Shown: positions 26,475 to 33,561 of the stretch, one piece after another | Layout of the letters: the number at the start of each line of letters is the position of its first letter | How positions within the stretch are numbered: the first letter of the stretch is position 1 | Source of the DNA: Candidatus Micrarchaeota archaeon | GTDB lineage: Archaea > Micrarchaeota > Micrarchaeia > Anstonellales > Bilamarchaeaceae | Direction: 5' to 3' | Assembly (NCBI GenBank): GCA_038046805.1 | Contig: JBBSVO010000002.1 | Span: forward strand, 80,784-114,344 | Length of the DNA stretch: 33,561 nucleotides | Made by a program: the position numbers and the translations under genes | Notes under the pieces: model-generated | Told to the model about the DNA's origin: nothing | The model's database searches: none | What the model saw: the letters and a program-made list of their open reading frames with translations, nothing else

Positions 26475-28037
26475 TTAGTCTCCTGGTAGGTTTCCGAGTT
26501 CTTTCAACATGAAATTCTTCAGGAAGTATGCAGTGTCCTGTGTTAATGCTCTTACGTATCCGGCTTCCTGTGCTGCGGCCATGTCCCTGTATTCTATTTC
26601 CCTCCCGTTTGGTCTTTCCACTCTTCTTCTGGCAATCAGAAGTTTACCCTCATGCGTCTCTGTGAAAACCCTTGCTTCCATTCGTGCGGAACCATCTACA
26701 ACCCATCGAATAATTTCGTCAGATATTGGTTTTCTGCCCAAGGCGATAAGCGCGTTTTGCGTTGCGGCATCAAAGACAAATCTGGTATACCCCATTCCGT
26801 TTGGGTCTCCCCCGCAAACGTATGTATCATCTGTTCCGAATTCCGGGTGCGGATTTCCTGTGGAAGTTGTCTTATGGTCGTCCCCGTCAAAGCTGCTTTT
26901 TCCGTATTCTCTTCCAAGCGCCATCGCTACGTTGTGCGAGGTTATCTTGTCTCCAAGTCCATGTGCTGCAAGAAGATCCAAAAGTCTGGCATTAAGCTCT
27001 GGGCTTTTCAACGGAACTTCTCCTTCGTTTAGAGTAGAATTCGGTCCTGCAATAAAATGCGCCTCGCGTAAGATTTTATCAACCGTGTCCCAACCTATTA
27101 CACCTTTGTCTATTGCGCTTACCAATCCAATCGCGGGTATAGGGAGCGTTGGCGAGTTGTAATTAAGCGGATGCGCTATTCCAAATACTGCAAGTTTTCT
27201 TTTTACCAATTCCCTTATTTTCACGAGCATTTTGTCCAGCGTCATTCCAAGGAATAATGAGATCATATGCAGTTCCGGGTCGCGCTTTCTCAAAATCATC
27301 ATATCCGCTGCTTTTATCGCGGTTTCATTTGCAAGCAAAAGCAGAATGTGTGGGCCGTTTGGATTATGGTCTTCAAGTGGTGCCGTGATTTCAGTTGCTG
27401 GAATGCAGACAATTCCGAGTTCTTCGCATATTATCCGCGTCATCTGGTATGTGCCAAGGTCGATGTTGTTATGCGGAGTCATTGCAAGGACGTCTGTGTG
27501 ATATAAAACTGCTTTTCTGATTATATCCGAGAGCATTGATTCTCCATCATCCAGTGCATGCACGAGATGCGGAACCCCGTTCATATCCAGTTCCGCTCTT
27601 CCTGTGTATCCGTGGTGAAGATGAATCTGGCCGCGATATTCTTTTTCATCTTTTTTTAACGAGAGTGCCATTGCCTCCCCGATAACTGCCTCTGCACCTC
27701 TTTCCGGGTCTCCTTCGTGATAATCCCTTCGGATTAAGAATTCGTTTCGTTCAAGTTTTTCCGCACCATCGCTTTGGTCAGGGTTTGATAAAAGAATAAT
27801 TACCCTGTCTTCGGAAATAACTTTTGCGAATACGAAAAAATTCGATTTTCCGGACGTTGTGCCGCTTCTTGTGAAAATCGTTTCTCCGCTTTCTATTATA
27901 CCAGACGCCCGTCCTTGCGGAAGAAAGCCGGAATCCCTTAATTTGCCATCCACTCGTTCCTTGGTTACTGCTGAAAATCCGCGCTGTTCCATTCCGGTTC
28001 CGAGTCTTTCCATGAACTTAACAGCAAACGTGCCCAT
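26475..28037 (-). CDS. PHP-family metal-dependent phosphoesterase-like protein with N-terminal extension
   Basis: PHP motifs in order: QIHLHH, LAMTPHN, IPATEIT, HILLL, GIAHP, DGDDH. Confidence 0.7.
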   Translation of the reverse strand: MGTFAVKFMERLGTGMEQRGFSAVTKERVDGKLRDSGFLPQGRASGIIESGETIFTRSGTTSGKSNFFVFAKVISEDRVIILLSNPDQSDGAEKLERNEFLIRRDYHEGDPERGAEAVIGEAMALSLKKDEKEYRGQIHLHHGYTGRAELDMNGVPHLVHALDDGESMLSDIIRKAVLYHTDVLAMTPHNNIDLGTYQMTRIICEELGIVCIPATEITAPLEDHNPNGPHILLLLANETAIKAADMMILRKRDPELHMISLFLGMTLDKMLVKIRELVKRKLAVFGIAHPLNYNSPTLPIPAIGLVSAIDKGVIGWDTVDKILREAHFIAGPNSTLNEGEVPLKSPELNARLLDLLAAHGLGDKITSHNVAMALGREYGKSSFDGDDHKTTSTGNPHPEFGTDDTYVCGGDPNGMGYTRFVFDAATQNALIALGRKPISDEIIRWVVDGSARMEARVFTETHEGKLLIARRRVERPNGREIEYRDMAAAQEAGYVRALTQDTAYFLKNFMLKELGNLPGD

Positions 28038-28092
28038 GGTTAATATTAGTGGGTAGGAAAAGGATAAAAAACAGTGGGGTTAGTGGCGGATT

Positions 28093-28129
28093 GCCTTGGG
28101 CTGTGAGCCTTGAGCCGTGGGCTTTGGGC
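28093..28129. repeat. Degenerate heptamer tandem repeat
   Basis: GCCTTGG GCTGTGA GCCTTGA GCCGTGG GCTTTGG. Confidence 0.7.
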
Positions 28130-28211
28130 AGACGCTACGTTCGTGCGGAACACAAAATAAAACTAATCAAAATCAGAAACACTCAACGCGAAACCGCAAG
28201 ACAAGACGCAA

Positions 28212-28607
28212 TTAACTTCCGCCAGCCAGTCCCAGACAATCTGTTTCAGGGTCTACCCTGCAGCATTTCTGAACCCATTCGCTGTTTCCCTCGCCCGTCA
28301 TAAGCTGGGAAATAATTACTGGCATCAGAATGTAGATGAGCGCACCTATAATCGCTCCAATGAACATCGCAGTCGCCCATACGGCTGCTCGTGCCCTTGT
28401 CTCGGCACCAAGTACCTGTCCGACTGCATAAACCAATGCGGCAATAACAACAAGCATTAGCATTCCGATTGCAAGTGAACTTTGAACTATTGCGCACATT
28501 CCGCCCAATGCCTTTTGAATATTTTCAGCGGCGTTCTGTCCTGCAAAGGTCGCACTAACCAAAAGAAGAAAAATAAAAGAAAAGGAAAAAAGAAAAGGTG
28601 TTTTCAT
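28212..28607 (-). CDS. VirB2/TrbC-like pilin-type membrane protein, copy 3
   Basis: Signal peptide plus two hydrophobic helices joined by GQVLGAETRARA; Cys-rich C-terminus. Confidence 0.72.
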   Translation of the reverse strand: MKTPFLFSFSFIFLLLVSATFAGQNAAENIQKALGGMCAIVQSSLAIGMLMLVVIAALVYAVGQVLGAETRARAAVWATAMFIGAIIGALIYILMPVIISQLMTGEGNSEWVQKCCRVDPETDCLGLAGGS

Positions 28608-28611
28608 ATGC

Positions 28612-28986
28612 TCACGAGCAGGAAGTTCCAACTGCGTCTGGATTGTCTATTATATCCGTAAGTGCAGTATCTTGCGAGAACAGTTGCTTCAATATGAACG
28701 GTAGTAGAATGTACAACAGCGCCCCGATTATCGCACCAATGAACATTGCCGTTGCCCAGACCGAAGCTCTTGCCCTAGTCTCAGCACCAAGTACCTGTCC
28801 TACTGCGTAAACCACTGCCGCAGCAACTACAAGCAACATCATGCCGATTGCAAGCGCGTTCTTTACAGTTACGTACATACATCCAAGTGCGCTTTTAATG
28901 TTTGCACCTGCATCAATAGCTGCAAATCCAACGCCCAACAATCCAACCAGCACCAATGCCATGATGATATATTTTCCGTATCTCAT
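28612..28986 (-). CDS. VirB2/TrbC-like pilin-type membrane protein, copy 2
   Basis: Same core (AIGMMLLVVAAAVVYAVGQVLGAETRARASVWATAMFIGAIIGAL); GAGGG ribosome-binding site. Confidence 0.75.
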   Translation of the reverse strand: MRYGKYIIMALVLVGLLGVGFAAIDAGANIKSALGCMYVTVKNALAIGMMLLVVAAAVVYAVGQVLGAETRARASVWATAMFIGAIIGALLYILLPFILKQLFSQDTALTDIIDNPDAVGTSCS

Positions 28987-29028
28987 AGTGTAATCCCTCT
29001 TTTGTATTTTATTTTATTATTATGAAAT

Positions 29029-29409
29029 TTATATCGCATTCGGATTGCATTGAATCAAAGACGGGTCCTTTAAAACAGCTGCAATTGGGTCCCCTGCAAA
29101 CAATGTTCCCAATATGAACGGCAGTAGAAGGTATATCAATGCACCAATTATCGCACCAATGAACATTGCCGTTGCCCAGACCGAAGCTCTTGCCCTAGTC
29201 TCAGCACCAAGTACCTGTCCTACTGCGTAAACCACTGCCGCAGCAACTACAAGCAACATCATGCCGATTGCAAGTGCATCTCTTACTGTGACCAGTGTAC
29301 ATGCAAGTGCCATATTAATGTTTTTACCTGCCTCCATAGGAACAGCAGACCCTATACTAAGTAAACTGGCGAATATCGACGCAATAACGATATACTTATT
29401 ATATCTCAT
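29029..29409 (-). CDS. VirB2/TrbC-like pilin-type membrane protein, copy 1
   Basis: Same core as copy 2; GAGGG ribosome-binding site. Confidence 0.75.
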   Translation of the reverse strand: MRYNKYIVIASIFASLLSIGSAVPMEAGKNINMALACTLVTVRDALAIGMMLLVVAAAVVYAVGQVLGAETRARASVWATAMFIGAIIGALIYLLLPFILGTLFAGDPIAAVLKDPSLIQCNPNAI

Positions 29410-29455
29410 AGTTATCCCTCTTTAGCATATATTTTATTTTTCATTTGCTTGCCAA

Positions 29456-29475
29456 TATTTAAAAAGGTTTATATC
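29456..29475. promoter_or_regulatory. Putative back-to-back archaeal TATA boxes
   Basis: TTTTTTAAATA on the minus strand about 50 bp upstream of pilin copy 1; AAAAAGG-TTTATAT (BRE/TATA-like) on the plus strand facing the structured element. Confidence 0.4.
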
Positions 29476-29533
29476 CCAGCATATTTCGGGTTTGGGGGCC
29501 GGTTTTCATTTAAATCCAGAGATTTCCACCAGT

Positions 29534-29682
29534 CTATCGTGATGTCGGCAGAGTACCGTTCTACTCGTGAACGGGCGAATGCCGACACGACATCACGAGA
29601 ATTTTTCGAATGGGTGGGATACCGTGCGCTTGCGCACGGTCCCTCTCCCACAGGAGGGGACGCCCTTCGAAAAATCTGATTT
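29534..29682 (+). ncRNA. Candidate structured ncRNA, copy 1
   Basis: 11-bp stem TCGTGATGTCG/CGACATCACGA; GAGTA/GCGAA internal loop; 10-bp stem ATTTTTCGAA/TTCGAAAAAT closing a three-way junction; covaries with copy 2. Confidence 0.65.
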
Positions 29683-29750
29683 CGTCTTTTCCCTCGTATA
29701 TCCTGAAAACATATTTTTAGCATAATCAAAATCCAATATCCCCTCATCTT

Positions 29751-29799
29751 GGCCAATAAACTGTCCGAAAATAGCCAAAATCGGTCAATATAATGACCG
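29751..29799 (+). repeat. 49-bp direct repeat, left copy (two CGGTCA-N6-TGACCG-like boxes)
   Basis: GGCCAATAAACTGTCCGAAAATAGCCAAAATCGGTCAATATAATGACCG; 42/49 identical to 31057-31105. Confidence 0.8.
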
Positions 29800-29842
29800 A
29801 CCTGTTTAAAAAACCAATGCTCCATAGGATATATTGATTAAT

Positions 29843-31054
29843 ATGGGCGTTGTGGAATTTCTCAAGGAAGAAAAATTTCTGATGGAAGATGCGCTTAAGG
29901 GCAGTCTAAAAGAGCACAGAAGGGACGCATATACTGAGATGGAAAAGGCAAACATTATCGTGTTGCATGGGCTAAGGGGCACGGGCAAGACAACACTTAT
30001 TGCACAGAAATACGCGGAAACCGGGAAAGGTCTGGCAATACACGGTGAGCATCTGGGTCTTGCAGGATACACGATAAAGGATCTTATAAGTCCGTTAAGG
30101 CACATTCTTACCGAAGGGTATCTTTTTTTTGACGAGATTGCCAAGCTGAAGAACTGGCCAGAGGAGATAAAGGTATTATCCGATATGTATCCAAAGATAA
30201 AGATAGTAATTACTGGTTCATCCGCAGTTAATCTTCAGAATGCAAAACGCATATTATCGCGGCGTGCTTTATTCATACATCTCAGGCCATTGACGTTCAA
30301 CGAATTTCTGCGCATACGATATGGAAAAACCATCGCGCAATTTGATCCATTTTCAGGTGATCCGCTTACCAGTGCTTTGAGAACAGAACTTGATTTCAGA
30401 GAAAAAATAAATGACCCGCCAGAAGCAGTGTTAAGCGAATATAAACGTGCTAACCTGCCATATCTGCTTGAAAAACCAGTATCTACTCTGTTGGACATGC
30501 TCGACAGGGTTATATACGAAGATATAGGTTCAACAGGATCTTTTTCCGAGGACGTCCTGGGAAAATTTTGGCCATTGCTCAAGCTTCTCGCGCTTTCGGA
30601 AAAAACAAGCTATGATAATCTTTCTACTGATCTAGGATTGGGTAAAGGCACTGTTGTTAAAATGATTGAATACCTAACAAAAGCAAATCTTATCATTCCA
30701 GTAATGCCATATAAAAGCGGGAAGGCAAAAGTGAGAAAAGAGTCGAAATATCTGTTTGCTTCCCCAGTAATAAGAGAAACTATTTTGCAATTACTGGGGG
30801 AAAAGGAGCGGGCGGTTGGTTTGGGAAGAGAAGATCTTTTTGCCATGCATGTAGATGGTTTGTTTTATCTCAAAACCGGCCCGGATTATGTTTGGAATAA
30901 CGCGCTTTTTGAGATTGGTGGCCCAAGCAAAAGCTCCGGGCAGTTTGCAATGGTAAACGCCAAGTTGAAACGTTTTATCATACATGAAGGAACTGAAATT
31001 TCCTATGCCGATATCATGAAGATTCCGTTTTATGTTTTTCTTACTCATAAATAG
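29843..31054 (+). CDS. AAA family ATPase (AAA_14-like) with winged-helix and degenerate PD-(D/E)xK-like C-terminus
   Basis: Walker A GLRGTGKT, Walker B LFFDEI, ITGSSA, LRPLTFNEFL, LSTDLGLGKGTVVKMIEYLTKANLI, PDYVW...FEIGGPSK. Confidence 0.85.
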   Translation: MGVVEFLKEEKFLMEDALKGSLKEHRRDAYTEMEKANIIVLHGLRGTGKTTLIAQKYAETGKGLAIHGEHLGLAGYTIKDLISPLRHILTEGYLFFDEIAKLKNWPEEIKVLSDMYPKIKIVITGSSAVNLQNAKRILSRRALFIHLRPLTFNEFLRIRYGKTIAQFDPFSGDPLTSALRTELDFREKINDPPEAVLSEYKRANLPYLLEKPVSTLLDMLDRVIYEDIGSTGSFSEDVLGKFWPLLKLLALSEKTSYDNLSTDLGLGKGTVVKMIEYLTKANLIIPVMPYKSGKAKVRKESKYLFASPVIRETILQLLGEKERAVGLGREDLFAMHVDGLFYLKTGPDYVWNNALFEIGGPSKSSGQFAMVNAKLKRFIIHEGTEISYADIMKIPFYVFLTHK

Positions 31055-31056
31055 TC

Positions 31057-31105
31057 GGTCAATCTATTGTCCGAAAATAGTCAAAATCGGTCAATTTACT
31101 GACCG
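31057..31105 (+). repeat. 49-bp direct repeat, right copy
   Basis: GGTCAATCTATTGTCCGAAAATAGTCAAAATCGGTCAATTTACTGACCG, beginning 2 nt after the ATPase stop codon. Confidence 0.8.
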
Positions 31106-31123
31106 TTATGTTTCCGGGCGAAA

Positions 31124-31185
31124 GGAATCCGGAACGCAAAATTCAAAACGGTGAGCAAAACCCTAAACTCAAAACCCGAAACGCT
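31124..31185. repeat. Degenerate heptamer tandem repeat
   Basis: GGAATCC GGAACGC AAAATTC AAAACGG ... AAAACCC TAAACTC AAAACCC GAAACGC; related units at about 31404-31436. Confidence 0.6.
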
Positions 31186-31237
31186 ACTTCCAATATCTGC
31201 CTGAACGACATTTCGTTCAAGTCTGTCGAAAATAAAC

Positions 31238-31386
31238 CTATTGCCAAGTCGGCGAGAGTACTGCATGCTTGCGGGCAGGTGAATTGCCAACCGACTTGGC
31301 AAGTATTTTTCGAATGAGCGGAATACCCCGCGAGTGCGCGGGGTCCCTCTCCATTAGGAGAGGGTGCTCTTCGAAAAATTTGATTT
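31238..31386 (+). ncRNA. Candidate structured ncRNA, copy 2
   Basis: 12-bp stem TTGCCAAGTCGG/CCGACTTGGCAA; GAGTA/GTGAA internal loop; same 10-bp stem and three-way junction as copy 1 with compensatory changes. Confidence 0.65.
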
Positions 31387-31436
31387 ACTGACTGAATTCC
31401 AGAGAACTCGAAACTCAAGACGCGAAGCGCGAGACC

Positions 31437-32513
31437 CTACTTCATTGCTCCTCTTACCCTTTGCATTGCAATCTTCAATGCCGCCTCTCTTGCATACCCG
31501 CCAGTTGTTTCGGATAAAACCAGCTTTGTATTTTTCGTAATTTTCTCCTCAACTACCTTGAACATTTCCTTTTCATTCATTCCCTTCCATTCGCAATAAG
31601 ACGAAATAACTCCTCCGGCATTTGCAAGGAAATCCGGAATAACAAGAACACCGCGGTCTGCGAGTTTCTTCTCCACTTCCTGTGTCATCGGAATATTTGC
31701 TGCTTCAACAACAATTTTCGCTTTCACTGCGCCAACATTCGCTTCTGTAATCACATTTGGTCTTGCACCAGGAACAAGAACATCAACAGGCAATTCAAAC
31801 AGTTTCGCGCCATCCAGTTTTTCTCCATCATCGTAAGCTGTAACCATTCCATGCTGTGCCTTTGTTTCCATCAGTTTATCGTAACTCAATCCATCCTTGT
31901 TGTAAATCGTTCCGCGCGAATCCGAAACCGCGACAACATTCGCGCCTTTTTCAGTCAAAAATTTCATTGTGAATGTGCCAACATTTCCAAACCCTTCTAT
32001 AGCAACAGTTGCGCCATTAACATCAATTCCTTTATGTGCAAGCGCCTCAAGCGTTGCAAGATAAACCCCATAGCCTGTAGAACCCAGTTCATGCGGAAGT
32101 CCGCCCATTGATGCAGGCTTTCCCGTGCATCCTCCTTTTCCCAATTCCTCTGCAAGAATGCCCATCTCCTTTTCAGTGGTATTCATATCCGGACCGCCAA
32201 TATAAAACTCTGGAACAAGAGGCTTTATTCTTCTTGCAAATGAGCGGATGATCTCCTCTTTATTAGATTTTTTTGGGTCTCCGCGAATGCCGCTTTTCGC
32301 TCCGCCAAAAGGCAAATCTGCAAGCGCATTCTTCCAGGTCATTGCACGTGCCAAACCTTTGACTTCATCAGTTGTTAAATCCGGAACAAACCGTGTTCCG
32401 CCCTTTCCAGGTCCAAGTGCGGTGTTATCAACAACTACGACGCCCCACATTCCGGTCTTCTGGTCGTATACTTCAAAAACTCTCTCGGGTCCGAATTCAT
32501 CAACTTTTGCCAT
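31437..32513 (-). CDS. gdhA: Glu/Leu/Phe/Val dehydrogenase (glutamate dehydrogenase-like)
   Basis: GPGKGGTR, MTWKNALADLPFGGAKSG, GPDMNT, TGKP, IEGFGNVG, VEAAN, PDFLANAGGVISSY. Confidence 0.85.
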   Translation of the reverse strand: MAKVDEFGPERVFEVYDQKTGMWGVVVVDNTALGPGKGGTRFVPDLTTDEVKGLARAMTWKNALADLPFGGAKSGIRGDPKKSNKEEIIRSFARRIKPLVPEFYIGGPDMNTTEKEMGILAEELGKGGCTGKPASMGGLPHELGSTGYGVYLATLEALAHKGIDVNGATVAIEGFGNVGTFTMKFLTEKGANVVAVSDSRGTIYNKDGLSYDKLMETKAQHGMVTAYDDGEKLDGAKLFELPVDVLVPGARPNVITEANVGAVKAKIVVEAANIPMTQEVEKKLADRGVLVIPDFLANAGGVISSYCEWKGMNEKEMFKVVEEKITKNTKLVLSETTGGYAREAALKIAMQRVRGAMK

Positions 32514-32715
32514 GCAAATCACTTCCTTGATATTTTTTAGAACAAGAATAGTTCAATATTAGTGCCAACTTCGCATGAAAAATTTATAAATGGATGCGGG
32601 CGGAACGAAAAACCCGGAAAGAAACACGTATGAAAAAAGCGGAATAAAAAAACCAAACACGCGAAAAATAAAAAAATCAAAAAAAAAAGAAAATTCCGTA
32701 AGCATTCGCTTCAAT

Positions 32716-33069
32716 TTACTTCTTAGAAGCAAGCGAATATACGGATTTTATGGCGACAATTACTGCCGCAGGTGCCACGAACGCTGTCAATGCGCCGGCA
32801 AATCCGGAAATCGCTCCCTGGACCGCCGCTCCGAATAGCGTGAATGCGTTTCCAAGCGCAGCAGCGGATGCAATCAATACCAATGCCGCAAGCAGGAATG
32901 AGTTAATCTCCTTGTCCGTGATATTCAATAGTCCGACAATCAAACCAAGCAATGCAAGCAAGGCCATCAATAAGCCAAGCCATGGCTGCACGAATGTTGC
33001 GAAAACCCCAACCAGCACGGCAATTACCAATCCTGCCAGAAATGCATACTCTCCATATTCTTCTGCCAT
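32716..33069 (-). CDS. Small four-TM membrane protein
   Basis: Four hydrophobic helices, GLIVGLLNITDKE, FVAPAA; GAGGTGA ribosome-binding site. Confidence 0.75.
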   Translation of the reverse strand: MAEEYGEYAFLAGLVIAVLVGVFATFVQPWLGLLMALLALLGLIVGLLNITDKEINSFLLAALVLIASAAALGNAFTLFGAAVQGAISGFAGALTAFVAPAAVIVAIKSVYSLASKK

Positions 33070-33281
33070 AAAAATTTCACCTCAGTTTTTTGTTATTTAA
33101 TTTTTATGCTTGAACGGTTTGCCGTTCAATGCGATGTAAAATCATCTGTTCCGTAATCTCGGTACAGGTTTAAAAAATTAGCGTTGTGCGCTTCGGGTAT
33201 CTTCTTTCATCACTCGTTTCGGAATTTTCATTTTTCCGAAATCTTTATAAACAATCCATGAACAAGTATAGCGGGATAACT

Positions 33282-33561
33282 ATGATTTCATCTCGTCTTT
33301 GGCATGTTGGATTATTTGGGATTTTATTTTTGCTGGTTTTGGCGAACTTCGGGTTTGCTGCTACGGCAGTTAATACCTGTGGCTCGGATGACGATCCTTC
33401 AAATGATCCTCTTGTAAAGGGAGAGATTGAAGTGAAGTATGGTTCTGGTTATTGGGACTCCACTAAAATAGGTCAATTAGTTATGTATGAAGACAAATGT
33501 TCTGGTTCTACAGTAGTTGATTTTTATTGTGATTCAACAGTTTATGCTGGTTATAATAATA
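33282..33561 (+). CDS. Secreted Cys-motif protein, N-terminal part (runs off the window)
   Basis: Manual translation: MISSRLWHVGLFGILFLLVLANFGFAATAVNTCGSDDDPSNDPLVKG...YEDKCSGSTVVDFYCDS; signal peptide; TTTATAAA box upstream; open to the window end. Confidence 0.7.
   Translation, partial: MISSRLWHVGLFGILFLLVLANFGFAATAVNTCGSDDDPSNDPLVKGEIEVKYGSGYWDSTKIGQLVMYEDKCSGSTVVDFYCDSTVYAGYNN

Follow-up and report, generated by a model that had tools for sequence, protein, structure and literature searches.

Two 143-nt sequences in a 33,561-nt stretch of a Candidatus Micrarchaeota genome (contig JBBSVO010000002.1, positions 80,784 to 114,344 of the forward strand; hereafter the window) very probably belong, judging from their sequence and that of their relatives, to a new gene-less, non-autonomous IS200/IS605 family of the Micrarchaeota. 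Elements of this kind are known as palindrome-associated transposable elements (PATEs) and were defined in Haloquadratum (PMC3119063). Domain A of each copy is best read as the left end and domain B as the right end of such an element, fused without a gene between them, and the hairpins most likely serve, by analogy, as the points at which a single-strand transposase, provided in trans, takes hold. The copies have fixed ends, are dispersed, and are inserted 3' of a tetranucleotide that their guide predicts, with no target duplication. A guide and a hairpin are present at both ends, and the left-end module is common to IS200 elements that encode the transposase TnpA. A first-pass annotation had described two homologous copies of about 150 nt, the first starting at 29534, as a functional RNA. 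The two copies and their stems are indeed found there; the element proper measures 143 nt and has further copies in the genome, and the first four bases of the annotated start (CTAT) are the target site, outside the element. The features are listed below.

29534..29537, +: target/left cleavage site C_L of copy 1 (CTAT), host sequence outside the element; fits the prediction from guide AGTA
29538..29680, +: copy 1, putative gene-less IS200/IS605-type element, 143 nt (DNA and model matches, homolog alignment)
29552..29555, +: putative left guide G_L of copy 1 (AGTA); 18 nt from cut to hairpin foot
29556..29574, +: left subterminal hairpin IP_L of copy 1, 6 bp, tip partly decayed (folding, left-end alignment)
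29575-29576, +: putative base-triple dinucleotide GC of copy 1, directly after IP_L and followed by GAA
29618..29621, +: putative right guide G_R of copy 1 (GATA), first base not complementary to the end TGAT
29622..29639, +: right subterminal hairpin IP_R of copy 1, 8 bp, TT loop (folding, right-end alignment)
about 29642-29659, +: second, dispensable hairpin of copy 1, missing from short variants
29677..29680, +: right cleavage site C_R of copy 1 (TGAT), the final four element bases; 75 distinct right flanks begin directly 3' of this site
29751..29807, +: 57-nt direct repeat, upstream copy of the ATPase unit
29843..31054, +: AAA_14/DUF4143 ATPase gene (PF13173, E 5e-22; DUF4143 below cut-off)
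31057..31113, +: 57-nt direct repeat, downstream copy of the ATPase unit, 82% identical to the upstream copy
31238..31241, +: target/left cleavage site C_L of copy 2 (CTAT), outside the element
31242..31384, +: copy 2, 143-nt element, between convergent ATPase and glutamate dehydrogenase genes
31257..31260, +: putative left guide G_L of copy 2 (AGTA), register set by hand
31261-31278, +: IP_L of copy 2, one mismatch
31279-31280, +: dinucleotide GT of copy 2, directly after IP_L
31322..31325, +: putative right guide G_R of copy 2 (AATA), first base mismatched to TGAT
31326-31343, +: IP_R of copy 2 (right-end alignment)
31381..31384, +: right cleavage site C_R of copy 2 (TGAT)

Across the family, conservation begins after a tetranucleotide ending in T and ends at TGAT. 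Among the 75 distinct right flanks, the first base is A in 26, T in 25, C in 19 and G in 5; the contigs of a paralogous copy part from copy 1 directly after 29680, and on the left of copy 1 the flanks beyond CTAT vary freely further out. Terminal inverted repeats are absent, the left and right ends not being inverted copies of each other, and at 143 nt the element is too short to code. The only nucleotide-exact empty site found, in a filled/empty pair at locus L254 (G068:C73), places the insertion exactly after CTAT with no base duplicated or lost; the copy there is degenerate (52 nt, without both hairpins) and sits in one of two repeated sequences. Neither this pair nor the 75 unrelated right flanks contain a target-site duplication. 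The host sequence at L254 is a partial duplicate of the end of a tRNA-like gene. At L162, the sequence to the right of the element continues an IS200 right end, one that L038 and L039 carry after TTAT. No excision joint was found in the contig sets X8, X9, X10 and X13, contigs being a form of assembly that drops rare variants.

In IS608, each hairpin is preceded on its 5' side by a four-base guide that pairs with the cleavage site, its first base with site base 2 and its second with site base 1. The dinucleotide 3' of the hairpin adds base triples to these pairs, AT being the partner of the guide AAAG and AG that of GAAT, as described in the available portions of the sources (PMC3201880, PMC5934647). 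The corresponding positions were compared in 67 left ends, comprising 66 of 83 model matches and 2 from another search, less L263, which was removed for its inverted interior; duplicates, cut matches and partial matches were excluded. Guide registers were set by hand in 11 of the 67; of the 56 placed automatically, 49 agree with all three pairs. The third pair in IS608 joins guide base 4 to site base 4, as can be deduced from AAAG with TTAC and GAAT with TCAA. In the Micrarchaeota set, target base 1 is complementary to guide base 2 in 63 of 67 left ends and target base 2 to guide base 1 in 60, with all three pairs fitting in 56. Mutual information reaches 1.07 bits for guide 2/site 1 and 0.58 for guide 1/site 2, the other flank positions staying at or below 0.31 for these two guide bases, and 8 of the 5040 permutations of seven guide types score as well as the observed assignment. 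Ten guide tetranucleotides occur among the 67 left ends, 24 of which represent one guide type from a recent burst. AATA is found with TTAT (24/24), as is AAAA (7/7); GATA (4/4) and GAAA (5/7) occur with TCAT, AGTA with CTAT (11/16), ATTA with ATAT (3/4) and AGGA with CTnT (2/2), and three singleton guides, AATC, ATTG and GGTA, miss the rule. The dinucleotide after the hairpin also follows the guide, being AT after AATA (24/24), AG after GATA (4/4) and GAAA (7/7), and GT after AGTA (13/16). The left cut lies mostly 17-19 nt from the hairpin. In a sister subfamily, GATA accompanies TCAT in 14 of 16 copies in genome G020, single cases of CATA with TGAT and GCTA with GCAT fit, and in the genome of the window (G000) one of three copies fits.

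Since the guide tetranucleotide varies in step with the flanking DNA, the conserved GAGTA/GYGAA "loop" of the window copies would be a DNA guide together with its base-triple partners. This loop had been compared in the first-pass annotation to a loop-E/S-turn motif of RNA, the consensus of which is AGUA/GAA. The resemblance fails in the homologs, where AGTA is replaced by AATA, GATA, AAAA, GAAA, ATTA or AGGA in step with the DNA outside the element; such tracking is the behaviour of a DNA guide; nothing would cause it in an RNA loop-E motif.

At the right end, 30 distinct variants were compared. Guide base 1 is complementary to the element end in 21 of these, namely CATA (13) or CAAA (7) with TGAT and, in one compensatory case (L256), GATA with TCAT. 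Position 1 is mismatched in the remaining 9, which include the window copies (GATA and AATA against TGAT), and the other two pairs are uninformative because they are invariant. The right cut lies 41 nt past IP_R in the window copies and 19-66 nt past it across the family.

Four full copies are present in the genome of the window (two on C2, one each at C6:25616-25807 and C13:40469-40659), along with one decayed copy near C2:56500 and three 114-nt copies of the sister subfamily; most are intergenic. One 114-nt sister copy (C6:62496-62609, +) lies in frame inside a trpA-like gene of the opposite strand, named by inspection, to which it adds 38 codons without a stop. A DNA search found matches in 7 of 41 genomes. 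The search of other genomes with covariance models that had been proposed earlier did yield homologs, with domain A in 20 and domain B in 18 of 151 genomes of the order (that of the window included), counts that rest on 31-34 candidates scored per genome. Named Micrarchaeota records carry the element; among the non-archaeal matches listed for an 18-mer of the element the structure is absent, and these were treated as chance. In genome G034, the right-end motif has 156 matches against 0 for a reversed control, and many copies share identical interiors in unrelated flanks, while in G020 all 16 sister-subfamily copies read are identical (16 of 17 matches; two share flanks). In a genome of the same genus (G001), the pilin-like gene and the glutamate dehydrogenase (GDH) gene also bound an interval, which does not align base by base with its counterpart in the window and is without both copies and without the ATPase gene.

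The interiors of the elements vary, with hairpin modules inserted, deleted or inverted and sizes of 114-320 nt; as they are so freely rearranged, the ends constitute the conserved part. The stem described earlier as invariant and the loops described as conserved are fixed only between the two window copies and vary across the family. Copies at L040, L075, L178, L255, L296 and L263 carry the interior of one domain, A or B, in inverted orientation inside the outer stem, reflecting either template switching at hairpins or an assembly artefact. The window copies are about 75% identical to each other, have worn hairpins, and probably represent ancient insertions, possibly no longer active. Copy 1 is flanked by a divergent gene on one side, which appears pilin-like on inspection of its protein (without a Pfam or NCBIfam match), and by the AAA_14 ATPase gene on the other, and copy 2 by the ATPase gene and the convergent GDH gene. 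A tandem array of three paralogous genes for small membrane proteins, pilin-like by inspection and with one weak Yip1 match below cut-off, occupies 28215-29409 (-), and further stretches homologous to these genes occur at C4:115504-115678 of the same genome and in G001. Immediately 5' of copy 2, a small hairpin distinct from it (31195-31233) has counterparts at C7:91758 of the window's genome and on C12 of G001, and resembles hairpin modules in the leader of the IS200 element of the former.

The proposal that selection acts on a single-strand fold read on the + strand is supported. Folding of the + strand is far better than that of shuffled sequences (z -6.35 for copy 1 and -8.14 for copy 2; 0 of 200 shuffles as good), as is folding of the - strand (z -7.13 and -10.72), and with DNA parameters the two copies are stable too, at -42.0 and -47.7 kcal/mol. 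As the fold is stable with RNA and DNA parameters alike, energy does not decide between RNA and DNA. The strong covariation noted in the first-pass annotation holds in both copies and in their homologs, with 94.3% of cells paired in domain A (two-sided changes in 14 of 23 pairs, 15 sequences) and 90.9% in domain B (13 of 29 pairs, 13 sequences), figures that lean high, both structures having been drawn from the same alignments. The outer stems take part in this covariation (domain A helix 1, 6 of 9 pairs, and helix 2, 3 of 6; domain B helix 1, 4 of 14), and domain A keeps a duplicated segment of 4-6 nt that permits two pairing registers.

Such covariation, together with G-U-type pairs on the + strand, a three-way junction, outer stems that have no counterpart in IS608 and the lack of an Rfam match, is what a stand-alone structured non-coding RNA or ribozyme, spread as RNA, would display. 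As had been claimed, no known RNA family is recognised: no Rfam family reaches its gathering score anywhere in the window, and at E<=10 the sole match within 28000-33561 is an unrelated weak one at 28505-28598. Neither standard ARAGORN nor RF00005 gives a tRNA overlapping the element, relaxed intron-permitting ARAGORN output being noise. (In the whole genome of 1.2 Mb, standard ARAGORN reports only 2 tRNAs and RF00005 has 6 matches, a low count that likely reflects many intron-containing or unassembled tRNAs.) The view that the element is not a riboswitch is likewise borne out, and the G-U pairs are present, although G-T wobble is equally expected of an active single DNA strand. Against an RNA stand the covariation of loop bases with DNA outside the element, a genomic position that is not conserved, hairpin modules that are freely inserted, deleted and inverted inside the element, and a left-end module that is an IS200 end. 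A free-standing functional RNA is consequently highly improbable. The fold may nevertheless have a subsidiary function as RNA. One version of this idea, in which the element is a PATE and RNA-level selection preserves its outer stems so that they hide the insertion, terminate or stabilise read-through transcripts in the manner of REP sequences, or act as a guide scaffold, is unlikely, but far less so than a free-standing RNA: the outer stems covary and yet seem awkward for guide-cut pairing, most copies in the window's genome lie between genes, and copy 2 lies between convergent genes, whereas the tnpB element of this genome has its own, different right end without a model match and the fold is also stable with DNA parameters. 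In a single RNA run (X13; contigs of depth 2-3 and a small share), pieces cross both boundaries of copy 2 and none lies on copy 1, a pattern that demonstrates neither transcription nor discrete ends. Derivation from a TnpB omega-RNA-bearing IS605 element was considered and rejected, as the tnpB locus of the window's genome (L048) has a different right end and no model match; three other tnpB right ends also differ from that of the element.

If the element is a PATE, a TnpA has to be supplied in trans, and IS200/IS605 elements occur in more than 65% of Micrarchaeota genomes according to a census, as given in the available part of the source (PMC13343696). The genome of the window encodes a single, intact IS200 TnpA of 157 aa (NF033573, 103.2 bits against a cut-off of 55), which appears to be the TnpA available in trans and is a candidate mover of the element. 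At L221 and L237, intact tnpA genes are immediately preceded by a module of AGTA, hairpin and GTGAA, placed 14 nt after CTAT or CTTT. The encoded proteins score above the IS200 cut-off and far below the RAYT cut-off; the TnpA of the window's genome is only distantly related to this clade (E 3e-8). The left-end module of these two elements (short closing helix, AGTA, 8-bp hairpin, GTGAA) is nearly identical to that of the gene-less element; they differ in encoding TnpA, in lacking the lower outer stem, and in having another right end, in which guide GATA and end TCAT follow the pairing rule. The domain B model has no match at L221, L237, L271 or L034, no autonomous element with both ends was found among the tnpA elements tested, and relatives of the L221/L237 TnpA were found at four loci only, none of those tested having the element's right end. 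The tnpA genes beside the element at L035 and L040 were rejected as partners, the element there appearing nested in the leader of another IS200 element. Several Micrarchaeota IS200 lineages (L033, L034, L037, L038, L045, L226 and L271) have long hairpin-laden leaders and ends, and by eye the right ends of L033, L034, L037, L045, L226 and L271 follow the same guide rule.

The two copies bracket the ATPase gene in direct orientation, with a left end outermost on the left and a right end outermost on the right, and the orthologous site in G001 is without the ATPase and both copies. This arrangement could suggest a composite transposon (29538-31384) that imported the ATPase gene. Such an origin is very unlikely, given that neither element end occurs at any of 19 related ATPase loci, that the ATPase has flanking repeats of its own, of which one box persists where the gene is missing in G001, and that the copies are only about 75% identical. 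The ATPase gene thus appears to be a neighbour of the copies, its status as cargo not being supported. Its repeats, about 50 nt long, are built from two palindromic boxes and are locus-specific. When the window and 19 relatives (L303-L321, out of 36 matches) were compared, an upstream/downstream repeat of 22-61 nt was present at 14 of the 20 loci (one of the 14, at L319, weak and T-rich) versus 0 of 20 mismatched pairs. This suggests that the ATPase gene and its repeats are a candidate separate single-gene mobile unit, and a PD...E pattern at the C-terminus of the protein is suggestive of a nuclease fold. No description of this unit was found among literature titles, and with its own direct repeats it is possibly a more novel lead than the element itself.

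The element resembles the PATEs of Haloquadratum walsbyi (PMC3119063) and the PATE-like elements of Geobacillus stearothermophilus (PMC10055086) and Halanaerobium (PMC7290912), as described in the available portions of these papers, in being short and gene-less with near-terminal palindromes, in lacking terminal inverted repeats and target duplication, and in having core-deleted forms and invasions by other small repeats. It differs from them in host phylum, in sequence, in its 114-320 nt modular variants and in the long covarying outer stems that enclose each end, stems that may also exist in Haloquadratum. Guide/target covariation was already reported for ISGst elements, as seen in the accessible text (PMC10055086). 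With IS608 and ISDra2 it shares, as far as the accessible text describes them, the four-base guide 5' of each hairpin, guide-to-cut pairing and the triple dinucleotides (PMC3201880, PMC5934647); the left cut to hairpin distance is 18 nt in copy 1 and 19 nt in IS608, and the right cut lies 19-66 nt past the hairpin in the family against 10 nt in IS608 (PMC3201880). Unlike these two, it is without tnpA and tnpB, its spacer is base-paired, it has at least seven natural guide variants, and the first right-end guide pair is often broken. No description of this Micrarchaeota family was found among titles and abstract openings, mostly of papers outside subscription and with ISfinder beyond the coverage.

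Being short, palindromic, multi-copy and intergenic, the element could also be a classical MITE or belong to the REP/REPIN repeats, in which case a DDE transposase or a RAYT would move it. REP/REPIN/BIME sequences with their RAYT share hairpins with a 5' tetranucleotide and a Y1 HUH enzyme, and are distinguished by a fixed tag and inverted doublets, as opposed to the variable target-pairing guide and asymmetric ends of the Micrarchaeota element (comparison from the available part of PMC6006769). There are no terminal inverted repeats and no target duplications, the guide is variable in place of a fixed REP tag, the two hairpins stand head-to-tail, and the RAYT model, with its cut-off of 80, gives the tested Y1 proteins 19-23 bits or no match at all. 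Dozens of copies with target-site duplications had been named in advance as the sign of a MITE; dozens do occur in G034, and they are without such duplications, which points to a PATE and not to a MITE. Given the guide/target covariation, the MITE/REP reading appears largely refuted and retains hardly any probability.

For the PATE, the course of transposition may be sketched by analogy with IS608 and ISDra2. When the + strand is single-stranded, a dimer of TnpA (HUH, Y1) made elsewhere would bind IP_L and IP_R; pairing of AGTA with CTAT, and of the right guide with TGAT, would be reinforced by base triples to which the dinucleotide following each hairpin contributes. Excision of the strand as a circle and resealing of the donor would come next, before the circle is pasted 3' of another CTAT. 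IS608 geometry does not account for the outer stems, which would keep each cut site some 13-16 bp away from its guide. Speculatively, their probable role is to maintain the short single strand in its fold or to adjust excision; compaction or gating of the single strand is conceivable, as is a function in transcripts. A bolder and rather doubtful idea is that the outer stems add a new control layer to single-strand transposition, with the cleavage sites caged at the foot of a helix and the duplicated 4-6 nt segment of domain A slipping register to free the guide. Such a DNA conformational switch would make minimal elements efficient in trans, and the family would be a natural library of re-programmed guide/target/triple sets.

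Reading the two sequences as a PATE removes a false non-coding RNA candidate and indicates that IS200/IS605 ends mimic RNA covariation in such scans. Many of the copies in the G034 burst lie near contig ends, which suggests that elements of this kind fragment DPANN assemblies. A programmable single-stranded DNA element of 114-143 nt offers a compact substrate for testing re-targeted integration, and the family, with at least seven guide variants, provides evidence from nature for co-evolution of the guide with its target and its base-triple partners.
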